Positions 6,126 through 51,554 of a stretch of DNA of 64,000 nucleotides are shown here, piece by piece. The translations under genes were made by a program, and so were the position numbers. Positions within the stretch are counted from its first letter, which is position 1. Each line of letters starts with the position of its first letter. The notes beneath the pieces are model-generated. The model was given only the letters and a program-made list of their open reading frames with translations, did not search any database and was not told the DNA's origin. The stretch lies in contig JBGPQK010000008.1 of NCBI GenBank assembly GCA_041489005.1, positions 6,602 to 70,601 of the forward strand, read 5' to 3'. The stretch comes from Anaerolineae bacterium (GTDB lineage Bacteria; Chloroflexota; Anaerolineae; Anaerolineales; Villigracilaceae).

Positions 6126-6623
6126 TTGCAAAGAGAGGCAGAGGTCTGCTGGAGTATAATTCAAGCAATGGAACTTCGTCCCCATACTTCCTTCCGTCCC
6201 TACATCGCATCGACGATCGTCCTTTTTATCATTGGCTGGGGGTGCGCAGCGCTCGCCGTCTTTACGCTTACCCCTACCGTCTGGGCACGTTGGTTGCTCT
6301 TCTTCGGTGGCACACTCGGACTCACCAGCCTCGCCCTGCCCGCCACCTGGTTCCTGAACCTGCGTTTTCCCGCCAAGTCGCCCGTCGGGACCGTTGTAAT
6401 TGTCCGGCAAGCCGTCTGGCTCGGTGTGTACGGGGCCTTGCTGACCTGGCTCCAGCAGGAGCGCCTGGTATCCTTGTGGACCGGCCTCGGTCTGGCCGCA
6501 GGCCTGACTGCCATCGAATACCTCATGCGCATGAGAGAGAATGCCCGCTGGCAACCCACCCCGAATTTACCATCAAGTACCATCGTGCCGCCTTCATCGG
6601 ATAATGACCAGTCGAAAGAATGA
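6126..6623 (+). CDS. hypothetical polytopic membrane protein (start uncertain: TTG 6126 or ATG 6168)
   Basis: Four hydrophobic helices (IASTIVLFIIGWGCAALAVF, WLLFFGGTLGLTSLAL and others). The stop overlaps the selA start by 4 nt. No family recognised. Confidence 0.45.
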   Translation: MQREAEVCWSIIQAMELRPHTSFRPYIASTIVLFIIGWGCAALAVFTLTPTVWARWLLFFGGTLGLTSLALPATWFLNLRFPAKSPVGTVVIVRQAVWLGVYGALLTWLQQERLVSLWTGLGLAAGLTAIEYLMRMRENARWQPTPNLPSSTIVPPSSDNDQSKE

Positions 6624-7996
6624 ACCTGCGCGGACTTCCCTCTGTTGAACAATTACTCCAAACCCAATTGGCTGCTGAACTCATCGCGAGTTACGGCCGC
6701 CCGTTAACGTTAAAAGCCATCCGTAGCGCAATGGACGAGGCGCGGAAGGACGTTTCGAAGCTCAGCGAGGCCACCTTGCCCGACCGGGAAACCCTCCTCA
6801 TCCACACAGCATCCCGGTTGCACCTGTGGACAGCCCCGACGCTGCTGTCCGTCATCAATGCCAGTGGTGTCATCCTGCACACCAACCTGGGCCGCGCCCC
6901 GCTTTCAATCGCCGCCATCCAGTCCATGGATGCTGTCTCGCGCGGCTACTCAAATCTTGAATTCAACCTGGAAACCGGCAAACGCGGAAGCCGCCAGATC
7001 CACACCGAGGCATTGCTCCAGGAATTGACCGGTGCAGAGGCTGCGTTGGTGGTCAATAATAATGCTGCGGCCGTTCTGCTGGTTTTATCTTCCCTTGCGA
7101 ATAAGAAACGCGTGATCGTTTCCCGTTCGCAACTGGTCGAAATCGGCGGTGGGTTTCGCATCCCCGATGTGATGAGGCAGTCAGGAGCAAAACTGGTCGA
7201 AGTCGGCACAACCAACCGCGTTCACCTTTCAGATTACGAAGAAGCCCTGTCCGTACCAACCGCACTGGTAATGCACGCTCACCACTCAAACTTCAAAATG
7301 ATCGGCTTTACCATAGAGCCTGAACGAAAAGAAATCGCGGACCTCGCCCACAAATTCGGGGTTATATTCGCAGACGACCTCGGGTCTGGGACGCTGCTGG
7401 CGACTGAACTCTACGGGCTGGCTCACGAACCGACTGTTCAAGAATCGCTCGCAGCCGGTGCAGACCTGGTTTGTTTTTCCGGAGATAAGTTGCTCGGCGG
7501 CCCGCAGGCAGGCATCCTCATCGGTAAAGCCGACCTGCTGGCGAAAATCAAGAAGCACCCGTTGGCGCGTGCCCTGCGCGCCGATAAACTCTGCCTGGCC
7601 GCGTTGACGGCTACTCTGCTACACTATATCAAGGATGAGGCTGAGCGTGAAATCCCCATCTGGCGCATGATTTCAGCATCTCCAACGCAGGTGAAGGAAC
7701 GTGCGGAATACTGGGCTGCCAAACTTGGACAGGGCGAAGTGCTGGCAAGCGAATCCACCGTCGGCGGCGGAAGCTTGCCCGGCGAATCCCTGCCGACCTG
7801 GGTCCTTGCGCTTACCGTCAATAGTTCCGACAGGTTTATGGAAAAACTGCGCCAGGAACAACCACCGGTCATTGCCCGCACCGTAAATGACCGTATCCTG
7901 CTCGATCCACGCACAGTCCTGCCTGAGCAGGATGGAGTATTGCTGGTCAATCTGGCAAAAGTCCTTCAATCTCAAAAGCGCAAGCGTAATCCTTGA
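6620..7996 (+). CDS. selA: L-seryl-tRNA(Sec) selenium transferase
   Basis: N-terminal LPSVEQLLQ, VINASGVILHTNLGRAP, and FSGDKLLGGPQAGI carrying the PLP lysine. Confidence 0.88.
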   Translation: MNLRGLPSVEQLLQTQLAAELIASYGRPLTLKAIRSAMDEARKDVSKLSEATLPDRETLLIHTASRLHLWTAPTLLSVINASGVILHTNLGRAPLSIAAIQSMDAVSRGYSNLEFNLETGKRGSRQIHTEALLQELTGAEAALVVNNNAAAVLLVLSSLANKKRVIVSRSQLVEIGGGFRIPDVMRQSGAKLVEVGTTNRVHLSDYEEALSVPTALVMHAHHSNFKMIGFTIEPERKEIADLAHKFGVIFADDLGSGTLLATELYGLAHEPTVQESLAAGADLVCFSGDKLLGGPQAGILIGKADLLAKIKKHPLARALRADKLCLAALTATLLHYIKDEAEREIPIWRMISASPTQVKERAEYWAAKLGQGEVLASESTVGGGSLPGESLPTWVLALTVNSSDRFMEKLRQEQPPVIARTVNDRILLDPRTVLPEQDGVLLVNLAKVLQSQKRKRNP

Positions 7997-11858: not shown

Positions 11859-12881
11859 ATGACCAACTTAAAACCCGCCCGCATCCTCGCCATCGAAACC
11901 TCCTGCGATGAGACCGCCGCGGCCGTGCTCGAAAACGGACGTGCGCTGCTGGCATCCACCGTAGCCTCCCAGATGGATATCCACGCTCGTTATGGCGGGG
12001 TCTACCCGGAAGTGGCTGCGCGCCAGCATGTCCTGTCCATCCTGCCGGTTATCGAGGAAACCCTGGCTCAGGCGCACCTGGCACTTGCGGATATCAATGC
12101 CATCGCCGCCACGCGCGGCCCAGGTTTGGCCGGATCGCTTGTGGTCGGGCTTAACACGGCCAAAGGTCTGGCACTCGGGACGGGTTTATCGTTGGTGGGC
12201 GTGAACCACTTGGAAGGCCATATCTACTCGGCCTGGGTATACAATGACGGGGATACTCCTGCCCCCGAGCCGAAGTTCCCACTGATGGCCTTGCTCGTTT
12301 CCGGCGGGCACACCGAATTAAACCTGATGGATGCCCATCTTTCTTACAGGCGCCTCGGCGCCACCCTCGACGATGCAGCTGGCGAAGCCTTCGACAAAGT
12401 TGCCCGCCTTCTGGGACTCCCCTACCCCGGCGGACCGTCTATTCAAAAAGCTGCCGAAGAGGGTGATCCGACGGCCTTTAAATTCCCGCGCGCCAGGCTG
12501 GAAGGGACTTGGAATTTTTCCTTTTCCGGTTTGAAGACGTCTGTCCTCAAAGAAACGAAAAAACTGGCCGGCAAGCCTTTGCCCGTGGCAGACCTGGCTG
12601 CAAGTTTCCAGGCGGCAGTCGTTGATGTGCTATTCAACAAAACGTTGAATGCGTCGCGCGAGTTTCACGTAAAGCAAATCGTCGTAGGCGGCGGTGTCTC
12701 AGCCAATAAACCCCTGCGTGATGTATTTCTGGCGCAAAAGGAATTTCCGGTCAACATCCCGCCTCTGTCGCTCTGTACCGACAACGCTGCCATGATCGCT
12801 GCAGCAGGTTATTTCCGTTACGCTCTCGGTCACACCGATGGGCTGGAGATAGATATTCTGCCGACCTGGCCATTATCTTAA
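11859..12881 (+). CDS. tsaD: tRNA N6-adenosine threonylcarbamoyltransferase
   Basis: ILAIETSCDETAAAV, HLEGHI and LLVSGGHT. Confidence 0.9.
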   Translation: MTNLKPARILAIETSCDETAAAVLENGRALLASTVASQMDIHARYGGVYPEVAARQHVLSILPVIEETLAQAHLALADINAIAATRGPGLAGSLVVGLNTAKGLALGTGLSLVGVNHLEGHIYSAWVYNDGDTPAPEPKFPLMALLVSGGHTELNLMDAHLSYRRLGATLDDAAGEAFDKVARLLGLPYPGGPSIQKAAEEGDPTAFKFPRARLEGTWNFSFSGLKTSVLKETKKLAGKPLPVADLAASFQAAVVDVLFNKTLNASREFHVKQIVVGGGVSANKPLRDVFLAQKEFPVNIPPLSLCTDNAAMIAAAGYFRYALGHTDGLEIDILPTWPLS

Positions 12882-13057: not shown

Positions 13058-13684
13058 TCAGACCTTTTGACCTGACACCTCCAGGATTTCACTTTTGGAG
13101 ATCGGCCCTGCGCGCAAAACCTGCGGCTCTGCTCCAATGCAATCCACCACGGTGGATGGGACTCCGCCCGGCGTCTTGCCGCCGTCGAGGATTAAGGCGA
13201 TCCGTCCACCGAGCTGGGCATAGACTTCCTCCGCCGTGGAGGGGCTTGGTTGACCTGAATGATTGGCAGAAGTGACCGCCATCGGTCCGGCTAAGCGCAG
13301 CAAGGCACGCGTCACCGGGTGGTTCGGGATACGCACACCCACTGTCGGCGTGGCGGAGACGGCCTCAGGAAGTTCTGGGTGTTTTGGTACCACCACGGTC
13401 AAAGGACCGGGCCAAAAACGGGCAGCCAGTTTTAGGGCAATTTCCGGGACTTCAGCGGATACTTTCGCCAGATCATCTACATCACCAATCAAAATCGGAA
13501 TGGCTTTTTCCACCGGGCGATCCTTGGCTGCATAAATGCTTTCTACCGCCGCTCCGTTAAAAGCCAGCGCACCCACACCATAGACCGTGTCGGTTGGAAA
13601 AGCCACTAGCCCACCCAATTGCAGGATTTCGAGGGCGCGCGGCAGGGCAAACGGGTCTTGCACAGATAAAATTACCGTCTTCAT
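13058..13684 (-). CDS. tsaC: L-threonylcarbamoyladenylate synthase (YwlC/TsaC type)
   Basis: FPTDTVYGVGA, GPLTVV and SANHSGQPSP. Overlaps the prmC stop by 4 nt. Confidence 0.85.
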   Translation of the reverse strand: MKTVILSVQDPFALPRALEILQLGGLVAFPTDTVYGVGALAFNGAAVESIYAAKDRPVEKAIPILIGDVDDLAKVSAEVPEIALKLAARFWPGPLTVVVPKHPELPEAVSATPTVGVRIPNHPVTRALLRLAGPMAVTSANHSGQPSPSTAEEVYAQLGGRIALILDGGKTPGGVPSTVVDCIGAEPQVLRAGPISKSEILEVSGQKV

Positions 13685-14556
13685 ACCTGTACTTCCAGCA
13701 GCCGGTCGTGACCGGCAATGTCTTTGTGCAGTTGAACCCGGGCGTTCGTAAAAGCATCAGACGCCAATGACAGCACCGCCGGACCTTCAGACGCTTCGAT
13801 TTCCATCAGCAGCAAGCCTCCGGGGATAAGCTGGTGGGGGACTTCTGCCAGGATCCGGCGGATGAGCGTCAGCCCGTCAGGACCGCCATCGAGAGCCAGT
13901 GTCGGTTCGCGACCATACACAGGGATTTTATACAGGGTGCTGGATGGAATATATGGCGGGTTGGATACGATCAGGGAGAAGGAATCGGAGATAGCAGGGT
14001 TGGGAAACAGGTCGGTCTCGAGAAAAGTGATATCTCGAGAGACATTCATTTTTTCGGCATTACGGCGAGCAACTTTCAAAGCAGCAAAGGAAATGTCGGT
14101 GGCAGTGATTGATAAGCCCACTACATTGACCGCCATGGAAATTGCAATGCAACCAGAACCGGTGCCCACATCCATTACTCTCAACTCCCGACTCCCGGGT
14201 TCCGACTTTCTCAACCAGGCAATCGCCCGCTCAACCAGCATTTCGGTCTCCGGGCGGGGGATGAGCACATCGGGCGTTACTTCGAACTCCAGGCCGAAAA
14301 ATTCCCAATGACCGACGATGTACGGGAGCGGCTTGCCTCCCTCCAGGCGCGCAACAAGCGTTTCCAATCCGGCATTCTGGCTTCTGGTCAGGGGCTCTTC
14401 TGAGTGGGCCAGCACCCAGGAACGCGGTTTGTCCAACAGGCACGCCAACAACATTTGGGCATCCAGGCCCGGCATGTCACTTGTCATTTTCAAACGGGTA
14501 ATTAGACCGCCGAGGGTTTCCCCAATGGTCTTTCCACGGGCCTTACTCGGCACCAT
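13681..14556 (-). CDS. prmC: release-factor glutamine N5-methyltransferase
   Basis: SAM motif DVGTGSGCI and catalytic SNPPYIP. The track ORF extends to 14625. The ATG at 14556 reduces the overlap with the prfA 3' end (about 80 nt from 14625) to 14 nt. Confidence 0.85.
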   Translation of the reverse strand: MVPSKARGKTIGETLGGLITRLKMTSDMPGLDAQMLLACLLDKPRSWVLAHSEEPLTRSQNAGLETLVARLEGGKPLPYIVGHWEFFGLEFEVTPDVLIPRPETEMLVERAIAWLRKSEPGSRELRVMDVGTGSGCIAISMAVNVVGLSITATDISFAALKVARRNAEKMNVSRDITFLETDLFPNPAISDSFSLIVSNPPYIPSSTLYKIPVYGREPTLALDGGPDGLTLIRRILAEVPHQLIPGGLLLMEIEASEGPAVLSLASDAFTNARVQLHKDIAGHDRLLEVQV

Positions 14557-15622
14557 ACTCCATCCCGCTGGCAGACAGGCGGTCAGCCTCGTCACGGGAG
14601 GAGAGTTCCTCGATAAACTGATCAATGCTCCCCTCCATTACGACCGGAAGGTTGAAGATCGAAACGTTGATGCGATGGTCGGTGACGCGGTTTTGCGGGT
14701 AATTATAAGTGCGGATCTTTTCGGACCGTTCGCCGGTACCCACCTGTGAGCGGCGGTCGGCATCCTGTGTGGAGCGTCGTTTCTCTTCTTCGATTTCGTA
14801 AAGACGCGCCCGCAAAATGGACAATGCGCGCAGTTTGTTCTGCAGTTGTGACCGTTCATCCTGGACAGCGACCACCATACCGGTTGGGATATGAGTGATG
14901 CGGATGGCCGTGGCATTCTTCTGAACATTCTGGCCGCCCGCGCCGGAAGAGCGGAAAACGTCAATTTTCATGTCCGACTCGGGGATTTCCACATCCACAT
15001 CCTCCACTTCAGCGAGAACTGCCACGGTGGCAGTGGAAGTGTGAATACGTCCCGAAGACTCGGTGGCAGGGACCCGTTGGACGCGGTGCACACCCGACTC
15101 GTATTTGAGTTTCGAAAAAGCGCCCTTGCCTTTGACTTGGAAAACTACCTCCTTGAAACCACCCACGCCAATCGCATTTGAATCCATCAGCTCGACTTTC
15201 CAGCCCTGGCGTTCTGCATAACGCGTGTACATGCGATACAGGTCAGCGGCGAAAATGGCTGCTTCCTCTCCACCCGTTCCGGCGCGAATTTCGACAAACA
15301 CATTTTTATCGTCGCGCGGGTCCTTGGGCACAAGCATCAGCTTGAGTTCCTTTTCAAGCAATGCCGCCTGCGGTTCCAGATCAGAAATTTCCGACTCGGC
15401 CAGAAGGCGCATTTCAGCATCTTCTTCGGTCGCGGCAATTCCGCGGGCTTCTTCCAGGCGCGCCATGTCGCGGCGGTATTCTTCCATTTTTTCGACCATG
15501 GGTTCCAGATCGAGGCGTTCTTTGTTCAGTTCGGCAGCGCGTTGATAATCGTCGCCCACTTCCAACAGAAGACCCTGAAGTTCTTCGTATCGTCTCTTAA
15601 TTCCAGCAAGTTTTTCGAGCAT
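14543..15622 (-). CDS. prfA: peptide chain release factor 1
   Basis: RF1-specific PAT tripeptide (RVPATES) and the GGQ motif (SSGAGGQNVQK). Start set at MLEKLAGIKRRYEEL (ATG 15622) rather than the track's upstream start. Confidence 0.9.
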   Translation of the reverse strand: MLEKLAGIKRRYEELQGLLLEVGDDYQRAAELNKERLDLEPMVEKMEEYRRDMARLEEARGIAATEEDAEMRLLAESEISDLEPQAALLEKELKLMLVPKDPRDDKNVFVEIRAGTGGEEAAIFAADLYRMYTRYAERQGWKVELMDSNAIGVGGFKEVVFQVKGKGAFSKLKYESGVHRVQRVPATESSGRIHTSTATVAVLAEVEDVDVEIPESDMKIDVFRSSGAGGQNVQKNATAIRITHIPTGMVVAVQDERSQLQNKLRALSILRARLYEIEEEKRRSTQDADRRSQVGTGERSEKIRTYNYPQNRVTDHRINVSIFNLPVVMEGSIDQFIEELSSRDEADRLSASGMEYGAE

Positions 15623-15810
15623 AAATGACCTTTTCTCGGTATGACGGATACATCTTACGCACGTGTCATATTCTTGTGTCCCGTCTTTTGGGGATATCAT
15701 CCCCAATCGGGGTTTTCATCCCTCGCGAAGCATATTATTTCCAAAGGGAATACCCGAAGCGTCCGCAATGTTAAAATATCCTTGGTGGGAGACACCCGAA
15801 GATGTCACCG

Positions 15811-23905: not shown

Positions 23906-25744
23906 TTACTTTCCTAGCCTCGCCCGTTCTTCTTCAATCACGCTTTCTTCCAACTTCTTGAACAGCGGCATAGGCTGGTTGAGTTTAGCGCCGGATTTCA
24001 ATTCGCTTGGCTTCCACTGCATCCCGTCAACGCCATGATACATCAGCACAGTATGCTCGCCGAGCGAGTCCTTCACGGTCTCGGTATAGGATTCCCCAAA
24101 CAGCGGACTCCCATTCCCAAGGAATCCATTCAGTTTCTCACTGGTGAATGGCAGGAATGGTGCGAACAAGACCTTCAACGAGTCGATCGCTTTCAGGGCG
24201 GTGTAGATGGTCAGGGCGGCTGATTCCTTGTCTGTCTTGACTGCCTGCCATGGCGCCATCTGGTCGAGGTACTGGTTGACGGTTGTCGCCAGGCGGAAGG
24301 CCTCCTGTAAGGCAGCCCGCAGTTTCACCGCCTCCAGCAGTCCACCCACAGACTGGAATCCGGCCTCGATTCCGGCCAGCATCTCCAGGTCTATGGGACG
24401 TAGAGGCAGTGGCTTGTCCTCGCCCACCTTGAAAGACGGCACATATCCTTCCCAGTGTTGATAACAAAAAGCCAGTACTCTATTCGCCAGGTTGCCCCAG
24501 GTGGCCACTAATTCGCCGTTGTTTTTGGCGACAAATTCCTTCCAGTCCCAGTCAGAATCGTGATTCTCCGGCATGTTAACCGTCAAGTAGTAGCGTAAGG
24601 CATCCGGTTCGTACCGGGTCAGTGCCTCCCGGCCCCACACTGCCCAGTTGCGCGAACCGGAGATCTTCTGACCTTCCAAGTTCATGAATTGGTTGGCAGG
24701 CACATCGTAGGGCAACACCAGGCGTACCCCCTCCCCTGACGCTCTTTCCGCGATGGGGGAGGGCTTGGGTGGGGGTGCGAAGATCTGCAGGAATTGCTCC
24801 CCAGCGCCCATCAACTCGGCCGGCCACATTGCGGTGTGGAAGAAGATATTATCCTTGCCGATGAAGTAAAAAGCCCGCGCCAACGGGTCCACCCACCAGT
24901 TTTTCCAGGCATCGTGGTTGCCGTTGATCTTGGCCCACTCGATCGCCGCCGAAAGATAGCCGATGACCGCCTCGAACCAGACGTATAACCGCTTATCATC
25001 CCAACCCTTCACCGGCACAGGGATGCCCCAATCCAGGTCGCGCGTGATGGGCCGTGGCTTGAGTCCCTCAACTTCGATTTTCCGCAGCGATTCGCCCAGC
25101 ACCGTCTCGCGCATGTAGCCCGAGCGTTCACGCAGGAAGTTGGCAACCTCCGGTTCGAGTTTGGAGAGGTCTAGGTAGAAGTGCTCGGTCTCGCGCAGTT
25201 CGGGGGTGGAATCGTCCACTTTCGATTTCGGGTTGAGCAGTTTTTCGGGTTCGAGCACGTTGCCGCATTTATCGCACTGGTCCGAGCGCGCCCCCGGGTC
25301 GCCGCAAATGTAGCAGGTGCCTTCCACATAGCGGTCCGGCAGAAAACGTTTCGCCCCGGGGGAATACCACTGCATTGATTTCCGAGTGAACAGGAAGCCG
25401 TTCTTCTGCAAGGCCAGGAACATGGACTGCGCCACTTGGAAATGGTTTTCAGTGTGAGTGGTGGTGAAAAGGTCGTACTGGATGCCCAATTTCTGGAACA
25501 GGTCAAGAAATCCGTTGTGAAATTTCTTGTAGACTTCTTCGGCAGGTTTACCTTCTTTATCCGCCGCAATAGTAACCGGTGTGCCGTGCGAGTCCGTTCC
25601 GGAGACCATCAGCACGTTATTCCCTTTCAAGCGGTGGTAACGGGCAACAATGTCACCGGGCAGGTACGAACCGGTAATGTTGCCAACGTGGATCTCGGCG
25701 TTGGCGTAGGGCCAGGCGATGGCGATCAGGATGTTTTCGGTCAT
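23906..25744 (-). CDS. metG: methionine--tRNA ligase
   Basis: HIGH-type motif (PYANAEIHVGN), zinc knuckle CYICGD...CDKCG and a KMSKS variant KISGSRN. Confidence 0.92.
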   Translation of the reverse strand: MTENILIAIAWPYANAEIHVGNITGSYLPGDIVARYHRLKGNNVLMVSGTDSHGTPVTIAADKEGKPAEEVYKKFHNGFLDLFQKLGIQYDLFTTTHTENHFQVAQSMFLALQKNGFLFTRKSMQWYSPGAKRFLPDRYVEGTCYICGDPGARSDQCDKCGNVLEPEKLLNPKSKVDDSTPELRETEHFYLDLSKLEPEVANFLRERSGYMRETVLGESLRKIEVEGLKPRPITRDLDWGIPVPVKGWDDKRLYVWFEAVIGYLSAAIEWAKINGNHDAWKNWWVDPLARAFYFIGKDNIFFHTAMWPAELMGAGEQFLQIFAPPPKPSPIAERASGEGVRLVLPYDVPANQFMNLEGQKISGSRNWAVWGREALTRYEPDALRYYLTVNMPENHDSDWDWKEFVAKNNGELVATWGNLANRVLAFCYQHWEGYVPSFKVGEDKPLPLRPIDLEMLAGIEAGFQSVGGLLEAVKLRAALQEAFRLATTVNQYLDQMAPWQAVKTDKESAALTIYTALKAIDSLKVLFAPFLPFTSEKLNGFLGNGSPLFGESYTETVKDSLGEHTVLMYHGVDGMQWKPSELKSGAKLNQPMPLFKKLEESVIEEERARLGK

Positions 25745-25836
25745 AGGTCACTCCGTTAATGGTGAATGGTTGGTAGATATTGCAGGTTTCGAAAGGTTCA
25801 ATGCCCGAAGGCATAATTTGATGGACCCTGCTCTTC

Positions 25837-25869
25837 CAAACAAAAAGGCCGTCCTTCCAACGGACAGCC
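25837..25869 (-). terminator. intrinsic terminator inside the metG leader (attenuator)
   Basis: On the minus strand, GGCTGTCC-GTTGGAA-GGACGGCC is followed by TTTTTGTTT, about 90 nt upstream of the metG ATG on the same strand. Confidence 0.6.
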
Positions 25870-25891
25870 CTTTGGGTTGGCAAACAATATC

Positions 25892-25975
25892 TTACGCTCC
25901 CGGTACGGCTATCCGTGCGTGGCAAGGCATTGCCATGGGCATCATCATGGAAATGGAAAACGTAGGAGTATTCAT
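25892..25975 (-). promoter_or_regulatory. candidate Met-codon-rich leader peptide ORF of metG
   Basis: The minus strand reads ATG AAT ACT CCT ACG TTT TCC ATT TCC ATG ATG ATG CCC ATG GCA ATG CCT TGC CAC GCA CGG ATA GCC GTA CCG GGA GCG TAA, giving MNTPTFSISMMMPMAMPCHARIAVPGA*. Its 3' part (ACGGATAGCC) is complementary to the 5' arm of the terminator. Confidence 0.4.
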
Positions 25976-25982
25976 CAGGTTG

Positions 25983-26011
25983 AGTTTACTATGTACTGCG
26001 CCAAGTTGCAA
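25983..26011 (-). promoter_or_regulatory. candidate sigma-70-type promoter of the metG leader
   Basis: TTGCAA, 17 nt, then TAAACT on the minus strand. The leader ATG starts 8 nt after the -10 box, so the transcript may be leaderless. Confidence 0.35.
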
Positions 26012-26144
26012 GCTCTAATTTGCAGGCATTCCCTTTAGATCTAATCCAAAAAGGACTGCCCGGTTGCAAGGGGTTCCATCATGAATTGCTTTCGGATTGT
26101 CACCACAGATTGAGAAACTGGTTGTACAATCTCCCCCGAGGTAA

Positions 26145-27878
26145 ATGATGAAACCATTCCAACTCATTTTCAACTATGCTCGCAAATACACCTTCTCGTT
26201 GGTCGTGACAACTGTCAGTATGCTAGCCCTGGTGGGCATACAATTGCTCATCCCTTGGATAGTCAAATTGCTGGTTGCCGAGGTGACAGCACCTGCAGCT
26301 GGTATGGCAGATATGAGCTATATCACTCGACTGACAATCATTGTCTTGATTGCATTTATTGGGCGCGCCGGCCTGCAGTTTGTCCGCTCGTACGTGGCTC
26401 ACGTGGCTGGTTGGGGTGTAGTGGCTGATGTGCGCAAATATATTTACAATCACATGCAGCGCCTCTCCTTGCGATTCTATGAAGACAAGCAGGTTGGGCA
26501 GCTGATGTCCAACGTGGTCAATGATACCGATCTGTTCGAGCAATTCATCTCCCATGCCATCCCAGACGTGGTTGTTAACGTGGTCACCCTGTTAGGCGTG
26601 ACCGCTGTTCTCCTCGGCCTGAATTGGAAACTGACCCTGCTTAGCACCCTCCCCATCCCGCTGGTCATCCTGTCCCTGCAAATATATGCTAAACGCGTCC
26701 GCCCAGCATTCCGCAACCGTCAGAAGGAACTCGGCAACCTGAATGCCCTGCTCAACGACAACCTCTCGGGAATTCGCGAGATAAAGGCTTTCACCAAGGA
26801 AGAAGACGAGGCGAAACGCGTTCACACCGGGATTGACAACTACCGCAAGTCTCTGCTTACCGCGTTGAAATTAATGGCGACTTTCCGACCGTTTGTGGAA
26901 TTCACTTCCTCGATTGGGACGCTGATCGTCATATTCTATGGCGGACGGCTGGCGCTTCAGGGCATGCTGCCGGTCGCGGACCTGGTGGCCTTCTTCCTTT
27001 ATCTTGAAAGTTTCTACTCCCCGGTACGAAACTTGAGCGATGCCTGGGAGGCGGTGCAGTCATCGCTGGCCGGCGCAGACCGGGTGGCTGGTTTGTTAGC
27101 GGAGCCCCGCGAACCTCAGACTGCCCGTGGCGCGGCACCGGTGACGGGTCGGGTGCACGGTGATTTCGTCTTTCACAACGTCAGCTTTGAATACTCCGAG
27201 GGCATCCATGTGCTGGATAATGTCTCGCTGGAGATACCGGCCAAATCGGTGGTGGCACTGGTGGGGCCTACGGGTGTGGGCAAGACCACCCTGGTCAGTC
27301 TCATACCGCGCTTCTACGACGTAACCAGCGGATTGATTACGCTGGATGGGCGTGACCTGTGCGATTACACCCTCGACAGTCTGCGCCAGCAGATCAGCAT
27401 CGTCCTGCAGGATGTGTTCCTGTTTTATGGGACGGTGCGGGAGAATCTGCTCTTCGGCCGTCCGAATGCCGACGAGGCTGAGATGATTGCCGCCGCAAAA
27501 ACAGCCAACGCCCACGACTTCATCGCCGTCTTGCCTGAGGGATACGACACACTCATCGGCGAGCGCGGCGTCAAACTCTCCGGTGGGCAAAAGCAGCGCC
27601 TGTCCATTGCCCGGGCTATATTAAAAGACGCCCCAATCTTGATTCTCGATGAAGCAACTTCCTCGGTGGATACCGAGACCGAGCAACTCATCCAGCAGGC
27701 GCTCGATCGCCTGATGCAGGGACGCACCACCATCATCATCGCCCACCGACTGTCCACCATCCGCAACGCAGACAAGATTGTGGTTCTGGAGGATAAGTCC
27801 ATCCGCGAGATGGGGACACACGAGGAGTTGCTCGAGCTGGGCGGGTTGTATAAAAGGTTATATTCCGTACAGAACTGA
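26145..27878 (+). CDS. ABC exporter, fused permease/ATPase (MsbA/multidrug type)
   Basis: Six N-terminal TM helices, Walker A GPTGVGKTT, signature LSGGQKQRLSIARA and Walker B ILILDEATS. Confidence 0.88.
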   Translation: MMKPFQLIFNYARKYTFSLVVTTVSMLALVGIQLLIPWIVKLLVAEVTAPAAGMADMSYITRLTIIVLIAFIGRAGLQFVRSYVAHVAGWGVVADVRKYIYNHMQRLSLRFYEDKQVGQLMSNVVNDTDLFEQFISHAIPDVVVNVVTLLGVTAVLLGLNWKLTLLSTLPIPLVILSLQIYAKRVRPAFRNRQKELGNLNALLNDNLSGIREIKAFTKEEDEAKRVHTGIDNYRKSLLTALKLMATFRPFVEFTSSIGTLIVIFYGGRLALQGMLPVADLVAFFLYLESFYSPVRNLSDAWEAVQSSLAGADRVAGLLAEPREPQTARGAAPVTGRVHGDFVFHNVSFEYSEGIHVLDNVSLEIPAKSVVALVGPTGVGKTTLVSLIPRFYDVTSGLITLDGRDLCDYTLDSLRQQISIVLQDVFLFYGTVRENLLFGRPNADEAEMIAAAKTANAHDFIAVLPEGYDTLIGERGVKLSGGQKQRLSIARAILKDAPILILDEATSSVDTETEQLIQQALDRLMQGRTTIIIAHRLSTIRNADKIVVLEDKSIREMGTHEELLELGGLYKRLYSVQN

Positions 27879-28098: not shown

Positions 28099-29283
28099 TC
28101 ACAAATATTCCTTCAACTGTCTCGCCCTTCTTGGATGGCGTAACCTCCGCAATGCTTTCCCCTCGATCTGGCGGATGCGTTCGCGTGTCAGGCCAAACTT
28201 CTCCCCCACCTCTTCCAGTGTGTATGGGACGCCCGTGTCCAGCCCGAAACGTAGGCGCAGGATACGCGCCTCACGCGGCGTCAAAGTGCCCAACACCTCG
28301 TCAATCTTCTCCTGGAGCATGGATTGGTAGACGCTCTGCATCGGTGTGGGGGTCTGTTCGTCTTCGATAAACATCCCCAGCTCGGACTCTTCGTCATCCC
28401 CAACAGGACTCTCCAGCGAAAGCGGCAGCCAGGAAACCTGAAGAATCCACTGCAACTTTACCAGATCCAAACCCAGTTCCACCGCTAACTCTTCGAGCGT
28501 GGGAACTCGTCCCAGGCGCTGTTCCAGGTCATGAGTGGCCTTGTAAGTCTTCCGGATGCGATCGCTCATGTGGACCGGGACACGGATGGTTCGTGCCTGG
28601 TCAGCGATGGCACGCGTGACAGTCTGCCGGATCCACCATGTGGCGTAGGTTGAGAATCGGAAGCCTTTATGGACATCGTATTTCTCAACTGCCTTCATCA
28701 GGCCGAGGTTGCCCTCCTGGATCAGGTCTAGGAAAGGCACACCGCGTCCCATGTAACGCTTGGCAATGCTGATCACCAGGCGGGTGTTGGCCTTAATGAT
28801 GTGCTCACGGGCCATAATCCCGTCTTGTACTAGGGCTTCCAGCCGCTGCCGTTCCAGAGTCCGTTTGCGGCCGGGGGCGCGCAGCAAATCGTCTTTTGCC
28901 TTGCGCCCATCCTCAATGCGGACAGCAATCTCGAATTCCTCGTCCGCTTTGAGTAGCGGTACGCGCGACATCTCCTTGAGATACATACCCACGGTATCGT
29001 CGCTGGAATAATCGCTGACGACAGGCTCCGGTTCAGGCCAGGGTTCCAGACCCGGTACGACCAAAATGTCAGTTGGAGGGGTATCCATTACTTCGGGATC
29101 CACCACGTCCACACCCCGGTGGCGCAGGGCCAGCATGATAACAGACAGCCGCTCGGCATCCTCCCCCACTTCGGGAGAGACTTCCAGCAGGTCGTCGGTA
29201 GTCAAATAGCCTTGCACGGACGCTTTCTCCAGAAGCAGGCTCAAAACTTCACGGTTGCGGTGTAGTCGGTCAAGTGGCGCCAA
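28099..29283 (-). CDS. rpoD: primary RNA polymerase sigma factor
   Basis: Regions 1.2 through 4.2 are readable ([60 protein letters not shown]). TTG start with GGAGG 9 nt upstream. Confidence 0.9.
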
Positions 29284-32341: not shown

Positions 32342-33529
32342 TTAGTACTGCAAGTTCTCAAAGATGGTTGCCGCACCCATGCCTCCACCGATGCACATGG
32401 ACACCATTCCAAACTTCGACTTGCGCCGCGCCATCTCGTAGATCAACTGGGTGGTCAGTTTTGCTCCGGTGCAGCCAAGCGGATGGCCAAGGGCGATCGC
32501 GCCGCCATTGAGGTTGACCTTCTCCATGTCTAGACCCAATTCCCGTGCCACAGCTACAGACTGCGCAGCAAAGGCCTCGTTCAGTTCGATCAGGTCAATG
32601 TCGTTCAGCGAAAGCCCGGCCAATTTGAGCGCCTTAGGGATGGCGACCACCGGTCCGATGCCCATCAGCTCCGGTGGGACTCCGCCGACCGCGAAGGCCA
32701 CGAAGCGCACCAGCGGTTTGAGTCCCAGCGCTTGGGCTTTTTCGCCGGACATGATGACCACCCCCGCTGCGCCGTCGGACACCTGCGAGGAGTTGCCCGC
32801 CGTCACCGTACCGCCCTCTTTGAAGGCTGGCTTGAGTTTGGCAAGCGCCTCCAGGCTGGTATCGGCGCGTGGACCTTCGTCCCGTTTTACCGTGAATTTC
32901 TTCGTTACCGGTTTGCCGTTCGCTCCCAGTTCCTTCAGCTCTACATTAATCGGAACCAATTCAGGGTCAAATTTGCCTGAATTGACCGCCGCAGCAGCCC
33001 GCTGATGGGAACGTAAGGCGAAGGTGTCCTGTTCCTGGCGGCTGATCTTGTATTTTACCGCCACGTTCTCAGCGGTCAGGCCCATGTTGGTGTAGTAATG
33101 GGGCAGTTCCGCCGCAAAGTAGGGGTTCACCGAGAATTTATATCCCATCATTGGCACCATGCTCATCGACTCGACTCCGCCGGCAATTGCCACGTCAATC
33201 TGTCCGGCTAGGATGGCATAGGCCGCGTGAGCAATGCTCTGGACGCCGGATGAGCAGTAACGGTTGATGGTCTCGCCCGGCACTGAATCTGGCAGACCAG
33301 CACGCAGCGCCACCATGCGCGCCATGTTCAAGCCTTGTTCGCCCTCCGGGAAGGCACAGCCGAGGATAACGTCGTCGATCTCTTTTGGAACCAGTCCCGG
33401 GGTCCGGGCAAGCAGCGCTTTCACTACCGCCGTGGCCAGCTCATCCGGGCGGACAGTCGCCAGTCCGCCGCGTTTACCTCTCCCAACGGGAGTGCGTACA
33501 GCAGATACGATTACAGCATCGCGTGTCAT
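32342..33529 (-). CDS. acetyl-CoA C-acyltransferase (thiolase)
   Basis: Active-site Cys region [31 protein letters not shown] and CIGGGMG. Confidence 0.9.
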
Positions 33530-49094: not shown

Positions 49095-51023
49095 TCAACC
49101 GACTCCTACAATATCATACCCCAAGGCTTTATATCCTTTTCTTCGTTTCTCAAACATCCCTTTTAGGACAGGTACTTGTCCATCTACATAATCATAGATA
49201 AGCACATCAGTCTTCAATTCATATAAACGGTGCAATCGGCCAGCATATTGAGCCAATGTTCCACGCCAAGAAATCGGTAGAGCAAGAAAAAGCGTATCCA
49301 AACGCGCGTCATCAAAACCTTCTCCTAAATAGCGTCCCGTGGCTAGAATCAATCGCTCTTCGTTACTCGAGATCCGTCTTAATTGCTCTTCGATGATCTG
49401 TCGTTGTTTTTTACCCATACCGCCCGACATAACAATAACATTTTTAATTTGTGATTTGAGTTTATCTGCCAATAGCGCCAGATGTTCGCGGCGCTCAGTT
49501 AATAGTACAGGCGAACGTCCGCTATGTACAGCAGTGATCACGTCCTCAATAATCAACGCATTCCGTTCCTCGTTACTCGTCAGAGCGCTGTACAAATCCT
49601 GGATTGCCATAGGTGAATAATTTTCCTCCACGGGAGGCGCGCAAAATTCAGTTCGCCTGATAATGACCTTATGACTGAATGGTCTAGCAGCAGCTTGCTT
49701 TCGATCATCTATCCGATATCTTATTGGCCCACACTGCATAAAGACGATGGGTTGGTGACCATCCTTGCGAGTCACTGTTGCTGAAAGCCCCAAAACATAT
49801 TTGGCTTTGGCTTGTCTCGCCACAAGTTCGAAACTGCTGGCGGAAATATGATGGCACTCATCAAAGATGATCTGACCGTATTCTCCAACAAAATCGCTGA
49901 TCTTCCCCTTCTTCCCGAGGCTTTGGATCATAGCAACATCAACCAGTTTAGTAGGCTTGGTCCGTCCACCACCAATTTGACCGATCTCTTTCTTATCCAG
50001 GTTTAAAAACGCACCTAAGCTGGCAATCCATTGATCGAGAAGCTGTCTGCGATGAACAACCACAAGAGTATTAACTTTACGCTGGGCAATCAAATAACAT
50101 GCGACTACTGTTTTTCCGAAGGCCGTTGATGCCGATAACACGCCGGTATCGAACTGCAGTAATCTATCCGCTACAGATTGTTGTTCGGATCGTAATGAAC
50201 CATTGAAATTTACATCGATGGAGTTGCCTTCAAAACGCTCATCTTTTATCACAACCCTGATTTTTAGCGAATTTAACAGCCCCACCACATCCTCAAGACA
50301 CCCTCTTGGTATTCCAAGGTGATTCGGGAATTCTTCGCAGCAACTGATAATGCGAGGTTTGTTATATGTTGAAAGACGCATTGCTTGCGCCTTGTAAAAT
50401 TCCGGATTCTGAAAAGCAGCCAGTCTGATTAAACGGTTACGGAACGAGGGAGATAACCCCTCCTTCGGAATATACACTTGATTGTTTAAGATCAAGGTAA
50501 TTTCTTCAGGAAATGGTCCCAAGATCGGCGCTTCTGTTGAAGTCCTCGATGGTAACATCTTCCAGGGCTCCGCTTCGTTTTCATCCACTAAAGGCATTCG
50601 AATCCCGGTCAATTCACCTTGTTGTTTTTCAGCTTCTTCGACCACCTGTATGATTCTCGTTTTATCTATTCTTTGAACAGTTGAAAAAAACGCCCATTGA
50701 TCTGGGTATGGCACCAAAGTTTGATCGACAAGAACACTGTTTCCGTGATCACGAGGTTTCTTTTGCAATGGTAAAGCGATCAGGTTACCAAATCCTCCCC
50801 TGGGCAATGTATCCTGACTTGGAAAGAGTCGATCATAAGAATCCAACCCCAATTCAGGTCTGCGACGCATGGTTTCGGTAAGTAAAAAAGTACCCACCTT
50901 CCGAGCCAGAACTGCCGATACAGGTTCCGAGAAGTAAATCCATACGTGACCGCCGTTTCCGGACCTCGAGCGTTCTAACACTGCTGGGATATTGCGCAAA
51001 TCGCAGCTCTCAAGAAAAGCCAA
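49095..51023 (-). CDS. SF2 (DEAD/DEAH, ResIII-type) helicase; distal part of an AEP primase-polymerase/helicase fusion
   Basis: AEP motif II RSRSGNGGHVWIYF. Helicase motifs TAFGKTVVA (I), FDECHH (II), LSAT (III) and QYAGRLHR (VI). The annotated TTG start is in frame with ORF 51036-51554 across a single TAG. Confidence 0.8.
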   Translation of the reverse strand: MAFLESCDLRNIPAVLERSRSGNGGHVWIYFSEPVSAVLARKVGTFLLTETMRRRPELGLDSYDRLFPSQDTLPRGGFGNLIALPLQKKPRDHGNSVLVDQTLVPYPDQWAFFSTVQRIDKTRIIQVVEEAEKQQGELTGIRMPLVDENEAEPWKMLPSRTSTEAPILGPFPEEITLILNNQVYIPKEGLSPSFRNRLIRLAAFQNPEFYKAQAMRLSTYNKPRIISCCEEFPNHLGIPRGCLEDVVGLLNSLKIRVVIKDERFEGNSIDVNFNGSLRSEQQSVADRLLQFDTGVLSASTAFGKTVVACYLIAQRKVNTLVVVHRRQLLDQWIASLGAFLNLDKKEIGQIGGGRTKPTKLVDVAMIQSLGKKGKISDFVGEYGQIIFDECHHISASSFELVARQAKAKYVLGLSATVTRKDGHQPIVFMQCGPIRYRIDDRKQAAARPFSHKVIIRRTEFCAPPVEENYSPMAIQDLYSALTSNEERNALIIEDVITAVHSGRSPVLLTERREHLALLADKLKSQIKNVIVMSGGMGKKQRQIIEEQLRRISSNEERLILATGRYLGEGFDDARLDTLFLALPISWRGTLAQYAGRLHRLYELKTDVLIYDYVDGQVPVLKGMFEKRRKGYKALGYDIVGVG

Positions 51024-51035
51024 AGCATCATCAGA

Positions 51036-51554
51036 CTAGGTGGATTTATCAAAATCAACAGCTAAAAACCAGCAGTTTTCATCAATACACATTGGGTAAA
51101 CACCAATTGTAAAGTCCCGACCAGACCGATCGGTCGGATCAGCTCCTAAAAGATGAGAACGGATTACATCATTGCTAAGTGGAATAAAATCTCGGGCTGA
51201 ACATTCAGCGCAAGTAATCTTTGGCTTGAGACAGACGCCATTGACCCATTCATTTCGGCAAACCGGCTGGTATCCAGATTTTCCCGTCCGAACATTCTCA
51301 AACCTGCGCGGAAATGCATCTTCTCGCCCTCTGAACAAAGCACGGAATAGAGCTATTTTTTCTTCCTGATCGGATTGATTATTGACTGCTACATTCGGCA
51401 ATTGGAGCGCAAGTTGAGCCGGCTGATCAAGCAGAGCCTTTTGTTGCCGAAGCTGCTTTATACGCGCTATCAATTCTGCGCGATGGCTGTCTAAAGCAAG
51501 AAGCTCATTATCGGCTTCGGCTAACAGTCGATCTATTTCAATATACGACATCAT
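51036..51554 (-). CDS. N-terminal part of the AEP primase-polymerase/helicase fusion (coiled coil, Cys cluster, AEP motif I)
   Basis: FRGREDAFPRRFEN...GYQPVCRNEW...C..C and the DxD motif FLAVDFDK. It ends at a TAG that is in frame with 49095-51023. Confidence 0.7.
   Translation of the reverse strand: MMSYIEIDRLLAEADNELLALDSHRAELIARIKQLRQQKALLDQPAQLALQLPNVAVNNQSDQEEKIALFRALFRGREDAFPRRFENVRTGKSGYQPVCRNEWVNGVCLKPKITCAECSARDFIPLSNDVIRSHLLGADPTDRSGRDFTIGVYPMCIDENCWFLAVDFDKST

Follow-up and report, generated by a model that had tools for sequence, protein, structure and literature searches.

A predicted ribosome-mediated transcription attenuator with a methionine-codon run upstream of metG in Anaerolineae (Chloroflexota)

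Leader-peptide attenuation has been described for the amino acids Trp, His, Leu, Thr, Phe, and Ile/Val; the examples from aminoacyl-tRNA synthetase genes are pheST and the predicted cases of trpS and leuS. The metS and metG genes of Firmicutes are preceded by T-boxes, leaders in which the terminator is read through when tRNA(Met) is uncharged. Here we analyze a short open reading frame (ORF) rich in Met codons, together with the adjoining RNA structures, upstream of metG, the gene of methionyl-tRNA synthetase (MetRS), in a 64,000-nucleotide (nt) stretch of contig JBGPQK010000008.1 of an Anaerolineae bacterium (hereafter, the window). A first-pass annotation made from the letters alone had proposed attenuation by a translating ribosome. 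The computational checks that it proposed all supported this reading, from which we infer the function, and we consider it likely that the metG leader is a ribosome-mediated (leader-peptide) transcription attenuator sensing the charging of Met-tRNA.

Like the metG leader, E. coli trpL can form two exclusive helices (2:3 and 3:4), a stalled ribosome leaves its segment 2 free, and the spacing of its regulatory codons is similar to the 16 nt of the metG leader. However, trpL belongs to a biosynthetic operon and has segment 2 downstream of the stop codon, whereas the metG leader precedes a synthetase gene, is apparently leaderless, and carries the antiterminator 5' strand (R2) inside the ORF, upstream of the stop. 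In E. coli pheST (pheM), cited as an attenuator in PMC1262725, the synthetase gene likewise follows a leader that combines a short ORF enriched in cognate codons with an intrinsic terminator and an antiterminator competing with it, and it is the charging level of the cognate tRNA that is read, as proposed for the metG leader. The pheST leader uses UUC/UUU (Phe) codons in a Shine-Dalgarno-led ORF, while that of metG uses AUG codons, is apparently leaderless, originates from Chloroflexota, shows no sequence similarity, and lacks a 1:2 or pause hairpin with statistical support. For Streptomyces, comparative genomics has predicted classical attenuators of trpS and leuS (Seliverstov et al. 2005, PMC1262725); they share with the metG leader the predicted leader-peptide attenuation of synthetase genes outside Proteobacteria and differ in the amino acids and the phylum. 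No RNA regulatory structure was reported for the methionine genes of Actinobacteria (PMC1262725). Mycobacterial leaderless short ORFs with poly-Cys stretches sense ribosome pausing and expose or sequester a downstream ribosome-binding site (RBS) (Canestrari et al., bioRxiv 10.1101/834739). The metG leader, probably leaderless as well, would resemble them as a sensory ORF with a run of one codon type, but they act on the RBS, whereas the metG leader has an intrinsic terminator as its conserved competing structure, Met as the encoded amino acid, and metG as the target. The T-box can be regarded as a functional analogue of the metG leader, which has neither a specifier loop nor a T-box sequence and would sense charging via the translating ribosome.

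The first-pass annotation knew of no Met-rich leader of metG, and none was found here either: full-text literature searches and Rfam 15, a scope that did not include the survey of synthetase attenuators PMID 20198868, yielded no Met-codon leader, metG attenuation, or leader-peptide attenuator in Chloroflexi. The class of mechanism is familiar, while the combination of amino acid and target gene is apparently undescribed, the ORF is probably leaderless, and the antiterminator design of one or more lineages is unexplained.

The promoter, the 27-codon ORF, and its ATG run were present on the minus strand exactly as initially described (Table 1). The -10 hexamer is separated from the leader ATG at position 25975 by the 7-nt spacer CAACCTG. 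This Met run is the only non-coding one of its kind in the window; a second Met-codon run, at position 33166 of the minus strand, lies inside a thiolase gene. The terminator hairpin begins 19 nt past the leader stop codon and is followed by the T-run TTTTTGTTT, ending at position 25838. Its 5' arm contains segment R3, which pairs either with the terminator 3' arm (R4) or, over 10 base pairs (bp) with one G-U, with segment R2 of the ORF; both the pairing and the hairpin with a T-run in front of metG, predicted in the first-pass annotation, were confirmed. The energy of the R2:R3 duplex is -15.0 kcal/mol, compared to -9.5 kcal/mol for dinucleotide shuffles (z -2.4, p ~0.025), and that of the antiterminator hairpin is -24.2 kcal/mol versus -17.8 kcal/mol for the terminator. 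Both alternatives were obtained by folding, the terminator on the full-length leader and the antiterminator on the cut leader: the minimum-energy fold of the leader prefix contains R2:R3, and with R4 present the global minimum passes to the terminator. Such a modeled switch from R2:R3 to the terminator, once R4 has been made, is the usual kinetic design of attenuators.

The source lineage belongs to the order Anaerolineales, and the closest relatives of its MetRS in the species-representative genome set were all found in Anaerolineae metagenome-assembled genomes (MAGs) (best 80 of 281 matches). The objects of comparison were the 80 loci around these metG homologues, with 67-91% protein identity and one genome per species. 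A short ORF with a Met run, followed by a hairpin with a T-run, was found upstream of metG in 73 of the 79 evaluable loci, the window included; the run comprised at least three ATG in seven codons in 65 of these 73 loci, and a -10 hexamer was located 6-8 nt before the ATG in 68. A leader of this design was missing in the evaluable loci L030, L031, L045, L065, and L073, while for L071 the available DNA 5' of metG was too short for a decision. Over the 300 nt preceding metG, at least four ATG in seven in-frame codons were present in 33 of 78 loci, as opposed to 4 of 3222 other 300-nt segments drawn from the same loci and 0 of 1560 shuffles; with at least three ATG in seven codons, the numbers were 63 of 78 upstream regions and about 4% of controls. 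Chance is excluded by this comparison as the origin of the Met-run leader upstream of metG. The leader MKIVFVTVMMPMSCRARTAAEAAS of L027, with its terminator, was unusually far from metG, about 530 nt upstream (locus position 2472).

With the promoter-defined ATG as the start, the frame is closed by its first stop codon 10-32 nt short of the terminator stem in 56 of 58 loci, compared to 1 and 6 of 58 loci for the other two frames. The leader peptides are nearly unrelated between lineages (...SMMMPMVMLFRARTAAPGA, MNPCIMMMPRLYLQFNAR, MFTTFHSMFMMSMPTLARTVSKGTR, MKFTSAFPMVPMTMLMSMHSMLQMDMPLCAKWKAR, and, in an Anaerolinea thermophila MAG, METLLMGMRGMMMRGRRISPPVLAA), while the Met run, the reading frame, the position of the stop, and the spacings are kept. 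Twelve relatives all have ATG at codons 14 and 16, and between the start codon and R2 only ATG codons are conserved. Since the peptides differ almost completely between lineages, what selection maintains is the Met codons and the RNA rather than a protein. Frame-specific placement of the stop combined with a drifting peptide is, in comparative terms, the signature of a translated ORF whose product does not matter. An unregulated locus, in which a common promoter is followed by a fortuitous ORF and a remnant terminator of neighboring genes, would be in line with the modest single-sequence fold z-scores (-1.8 to -2.2), but we give this explanation almost no credence. It is effectively refuted by the comparative statistics, since the frame, the Met run, and the spacings are conserved across loci with only 60-90% MetRS identity. 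Moreover, the upstream neighbor of metG in the window, an ABC exporter gene (26145-27878) starting at position 26145, is divergent, and therefore no upstream gene needs the leader terminator.

The leader ATG is located 6 or 7 nt 3' of the -10 hexamer in 65 of 74 loci, and these few nucleotides are variable and pyrimidine-rich. A Shine-Dalgarno sequence for the leader ORF cannot fit into this distance, which places the A of the ATG at the canonical position of a transcription start. Judging by the position of the promoter, the ORF is probably leaderless, with the transcript starting at the A of the ATG, which agrees with the guess of the first-pass annotation. The most common -10 variants were TAAACT (33 loci), TAAAAT (22), and TACACT (7). 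A perfect -35 hexamer TTGACA was found in 22 relatives, and TTGCAA, TTGCCA, or TTGTCA in 20 more, the usual spacer being 17 nt; loci without a TTGACA-like -35 have a TAG-extended -10 instead. Leaderless genes have been predicted to account for a few percent of Chloroflexi genes (PMC3160421).

Class A, to which the window belongs, comprises 48 loci with a nearly invariant R3 core GGCTGTCC in the terminator 5' arm. R4 (variants GGACAGCC, GGACGGCC, and GGGCAGCC) and R2 (variants CGGACAGCC, CGGATAGCC, TGGGCAGCC, and CGGACAGTG) vary mainly by transitions that preserve the pairing with R3 (wobble-compatible). Since the meaning of the R2 codons shifts (RTA, RIA, WAA, RTV) while the pairing stays, the constraint on R2 appears to be on the RNA rather than on the peptide. 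In a MAFFT alignment of 30 sequences, 94.8% of the terminator cells were paired and three pairs had changed on both sides. Within the 8-bp core of R2:R3, seven pairs were kept in 25-29 of the 30 sequences and the outermost core pair in 17; over the whole helix, 81% of cells were paired versus 28-40% with a slid partner. RNAalifold was applied to a gapless alignment of 12 members of the 27-codon family of the window: the terminator was the sole consensus structure of the full-length leader, and R2:R3 the sole helix of the leader cut just before R4, with its outermost pair covarying (AU/GC/UA/GU). Minimum-energy folds of the prefix paired the terminator 5' arm with a segment of the ORF in 33 of the 48 class A loci, and the shuffle z-scores of R2:R3 reached -3 to -4.4 in several close relatives. 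Hence, the ORF, the ATG run, the terminator, and the antiterminator pairing proposed in the first-pass annotation are all kept upstream of metG in relatives.

The spacing between the Met run and R2 is also preserved. In the window, 16 nt separate the start of R2 from the first base of the last Met codon, and this distance is 14-17 nt (mode 16) in 31 of 39 assignable loci; as deduced from the sequences, R2 would thus begin just past the 3' edge of a ribosome with the last Met codon in the A site. In most loci R2 ends 9-15 nt before the stop, while in the WDER-stop subfamily it overlaps the stop; the terminator stem starts 15-26 nt past the leader stop. In a masking model of the window, nt 60-69 remain accessible when the ribosome stalls at codons 10-16 and are covered when it reads codons ~17-27. 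The model agrees with the first-pass annotation in that a stalled ribosome frees the antiterminator arm and a reading ribosome covers it; masking from the stop codon, as originally suggested, concerns only the last 3 nt of R2, which would be covered mainly while codons ~17-27 are being read. A helix spanning a ribosome at the stop codon would also be sterically implausible.

The following mechanism could be proposed. Transcription would start at the A of the leader ATG or immediately beside it, and a ribosome would load on the 5'-terminal AUG without a Shine-Dalgarno sequence. With plentiful Met-tRNA(Met), it would pass the five Met codons and occupy codons ~17-27, covering R2 while R3, R4, and the T-run are made; R3 would then pair with R4, the terminator would form, and metG would not be transcribed. 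If MetRS activity or methionine were limiting, the ribosome would wait at codons 10-16, with R2 just outside it and free to pair with R3 as the latter emerges. The terminator would be blocked, and the polymerase would enter metG, restoring the charging capacity.

The fate of the leader RNA not occupied by a ribosome is important for this scheme, since MetRS also charges the initiator tRNA needed by the leader. In the window, the purine tract before the leader stop may form a clamp, P0, with the pyrimidine-rich codons 4-7, and this clamp appears in the minimum-energy folds. According to a co-transcriptional energy series, P0 is already in place when R3 is synthesized, and for topological reasons it cannot coexist with R2:R3; the estimated barrier is ~14 kcal/mol. 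In this model, the untranslated window RNA would terminate via P0, as in trp superattenuation. Eleven of 12 close relatives retain a GGAG-like tract before the stop; the P0 pairing was no better than in dinucleotide shuffles in 12 relatives, and the membership of P0 in the element is uncertain.

Class B includes 17 loci (L006, L007, L012-L015, L017, L019-L021, L035, L039, L044, L054, L072, L078, and L080), with leaders located 120-270 nt upstream of metG and encoding the peptide M-x4-MMM-[S/P]-R-..-LQF-x-AR-stop. Their terminator, CTGCTGGCG-AAAG-CCGGCAG, differs from that of class A. The stop codon is part of an invariant 8-bp hairpin, GCAGTTCA/TGAACTGC, which in 14 of the 17 loci begins 17 nt downstream of the last Met codon. 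The 8-nt loop of this hairpin carries GCCAG, complementary to CTGGC of the terminator 5' arm, in all 17 loci. Nested antiterminators based on GCCAG:CTGGC and GCAGU:ACUGC were considered and rejected, being 0-5.3 kcal/mol less stable than the local hairpin and indistinguishable from shuffles. The antiterminator of class B may be a loop-to-arm H-type pseudoknot, an idea that would fit the logic of the element. One more arrangement was found in L073, about 250-170 nt upstream of metG: an R2-like segment, GGACAGCT, overlaps the start codon (ATGGACAGCTG) and pairs over 9 bp with the terminator 5' arm, the sole internal Met codon is the last codon, and the ATG is located 12 nt after the -10 hexamer. 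Such a layout hints at the sensing of initiation rather than elongation.

Several points weigh against attenuation by stalling at the Met codons. Support for the attenuator is wholly computational. In the equilibrium fold of the complete leader, the terminator is retained even under the mask of a stalled ribosome, and because the terminator is always the thermodynamic minimum of the complete leader, antitermination must be kinetic. A low level of MetRS would also lower fMet-tRNA and reduce initiation on the leader, so that the outcome hinges on the default, ribosome-free state. The R2:R3 pairing in the 30 sequences exceeded only the slid controls and not the column-shuffle control, because R3 does not vary; with R3 nearly invariant, true two-sided covariation is limited to one pair. 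Only 21 of the 48 class A loci had an R2:R3 duplex better than dinucleotide shuffles (p<=0.05), and neither the R2:R3 duplex of the WKAR-stop subfamily nor the antiterminator of class B surpassed shuffles. Finally, RNAalifold detected no anti-antiterminator (1:2) or pause hairpin with statistical support in the 12-relative alignment.

The latter result, obtained in RNAalifold and shuffle analyses of the relatives, along with the conserved leaderless geometry and the placement of the R2-like segment on the start codon of L073, where the sole internal Met codon is the last one, also fits a reading in which the translated ORF controls the terminator but reports initiation or general translational capacity (fMet-tRNA, ribosomes), the internal AUGs being secondary or back-up starts. 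This is unlikely, since the Met run is the most conserved coding feature and its distance of 14-17 nt to R2, fixed in most loci, is needed by elongation stalling and not by the sensing of initiation. Internal AUGs with neither a Shine-Dalgarno sequence nor a 5' end make poor starts, and the untranslated window RNA is trapped, according to the co-transcriptional energy series, in a fold leading to termination. A combination of both signals is a more plausible, though still doubtful, variant. The leader would be a dual sensor of fMet-tRNA at the 5'-terminal AUG, where without initiation R2 is never masked, and of elongator Met-tRNA at the AUG run, with lineage versions including a new type of antiterminator (the class B pseudoknot, or the L073 antiterminator strand on the start codon).

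The association of the leader with metG was analyzed using the gene-agnostic DNA pattern GACAGC-N28-56-GGCTGTCC-N4-10-GGRCRGYCTTT, which was scanned in public metagenome contigs; 80 of the 88 matching stretches were assessed. Among these 80 listed matches, 45 preceded a metG homologue (60-94% identity) at a distance of 26-155 nt, each of them with a Met-rich leader ORF. In the other 35, a metG homologue on the recovered DNA and a Met-rich leader in readable context were both absent (0 of 35 in each case), and most were ordinary terminators after unrelated genes. Four of them end at the contig edge just past the match, one of which, L113, has a leader-like Met ORF, and two carry the Met-rich C-terminus of a longer, unrelated ORF. 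A scan for attenuators of the same design in 1.23 Mb of retrieved loci gave 84 matches, 83 of which were metG leaders; in the window the metG leader was the sole convincing match, and no other synthetase or amino acid operon was found in these 64 kb. Within the scope of these sequence scans, the element is found exclusively with metG.

The variable distance between the terminator and metG (26-155 nt) is relevant to another explanation, according to which the short ORF acts mainly on metG translation or mRNA stability, and the hairpin with the T-run is only a weak or constitutive terminator. Leaderless sensory short ORFs with RBS sequestration offer a precedent (bioRxiv 10.1101/834739), and in the fold of the whole 5' untranslated region of the window, leader nt 6-11 (UACUCC; 25965-25970, minus strand) pair with the metG Shine-Dalgarno region GGAGUG (25749-25754). 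This pairing was met only once, in the window, and could reflect either additional control at the level of translation or mere coincidence. We regard an action on translation or stability as quite improbable: the conserved partner of the 3' segment of the ORF is the terminator 5' arm and not the metG Shine-Dalgarno region, the distance from the terminator to metG is not conserved, and a canonical 11-bp GC-rich stem with a T-run is present in nearly all loci. The segment between the terminator and metG contains a UUCG-tetraloop hairpin, AUGCC-UUCG-GGCAU (25775-25788, minus strand), and it is this region that varies in length among relatives.

The unusually invariant R3 sequence and the T-box regulation of metS and metG in Firmicutes could suggest that the RNA binds a ligand, a tRNA, or a protein, like a T-box, a SAM riboswitch, or a MetRS-binding anticodon-arm mimic of the E. 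coli thrS type, and that the ORF is incidental. Comparison with Rfam 15 at the gathering score revealed no relevant match in the whole window or in 16 related loci, and at E<=10 no T-box, SAM, or other match was found in window positions 25600-26300. Among the individual candidates, the T-box riboswitch (RF00230) was rejected, since neither the stem I specifier loop nor the T-box antiterminator bulge was matched by the covariance model; the SAM riboswitch and the known leader families (Trp, His, Leu, Thr, Phe) had no Rfam 15 match. An anticodon-arm mimic recognized by MetRS, considered for the class B hairpin because of its UUCAUG loop, was discarded as well, since the CAU-like loop is variable (CAU, CGU, UAU, CAC). 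Thus, the region gave no Rfam match to a known riboswitch or T-box, which the first-pass annotation had named as a result that would speak against attenuation. Moreover, apart from the ATG codons, the stretch from the start to R2 is not conserved, leaving no room for an aptamer. A binding RNA with an incidental ORF is thus highly improbable.

Table 1. Features of the metG leader region in the window
Feature	Position	Strand	Remarks
-35 hexamer TTGCAA of the leader promoter	26006..26011	(-)	17-nt spacer to the -10; spacer conserved
-10 hexamer TAAACT, TAG in front	25983..25988	(-)	similar hexamers in relatives
Leader ORF MNTPTFSISMMMPMAMPCHARIAVPGA-stop, 27 codons + stop	25892..25975	(-)	stop TAA 25894-25892; probably leaderless
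Met-codon run, ATG at codons 10, 11, 12, 14, 16	25928..25948	(-)	5 of 7 consecutive codons
R2 ACGGATAGCC, antiterminator 5' strand	25907..25916	(-)	inside ORF codons 20-23
Purine tract GGGAG before the leader stop	25897..25901	(-)	possible clamp P0 with pyrimidine-rich codons 4-7 (~25964-25955)
R3 GGCTGTCCGT, antiterminator 3' strand and terminator 5' arm	25860..25869	(-)	common to both helices
Intrinsic terminator, stem AAGGGCTGTCC/GGACGGCCTTT, loop GTTGGAA	25838..25872	(-)	25872-25862 / 25854-25844; 11 bp, -17.8 kcal/mol
metG Shine-Dalgarno GGAG	25754-25751	(-)	
metG start codon ATG	25744	(-)	93 nt past the leader terminator
metG (methionyl-tRNA synthetase, 612 aa)	23906..25744	(-)	Pfam PF09334 tRNA-synt_1g, E 1e-133; regulated gene under the proposed mechanism

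The intergenic region upstream of metG is 400 nt long, and metG is monocistronic in the window since the downstream gene is convergent. In many relatives, including L031, L039, L054, L065, and L072, an rpoD-like sigma-70 gene of like orientation ends directly 5' of the metG leader. Its counterpart in the window, at 28099-29283 on the minus strand, is separated from the leader by the divergent ABC exporter gene, suggesting that an insertion or rearrangement has occurred. The window also has a cluster of translation-apparatus genes, namely selA (selenocysteine synthase), as well as tsaC (Sua5/YrdC), prmC, and prfA in a row (6620-7996, plus strand; 13058-15706, minus strand), and tsaD is found at 11859-12881. 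A gene at 49095-51554 on the minus strand encodes an AEP-TOTE primase domain fused to a ResIII/DEAD helicase, as in TOTE-type conflict systems, and is split by one in-frame TAG at 51038-51036 (context ...AVDFDKST-stop-SDDALAF...). This TAG may be a TGG-to-TAG nonsense mutation, a sign of a pseudogene, or an assembly error.

Methionine is a special case for attenuation, since the regulated enzyme also charges the initiator tRNA that the leader ORF requires to start. The metG leader would fill the role played in Firmicutes by the T-boxes of metS. If the proposed mechanism is true, Anaerolineae, a poorly studied and mostly uncultured group, would use ribosome-sensed attenuation with leaderless mini-ORFs. 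The leader would provide a testable handle on the coupling of transcription and translation in Chloroflexota, since Anaerolinea thermophila carries a version of it, and could become a new RNA family for genome annotation.

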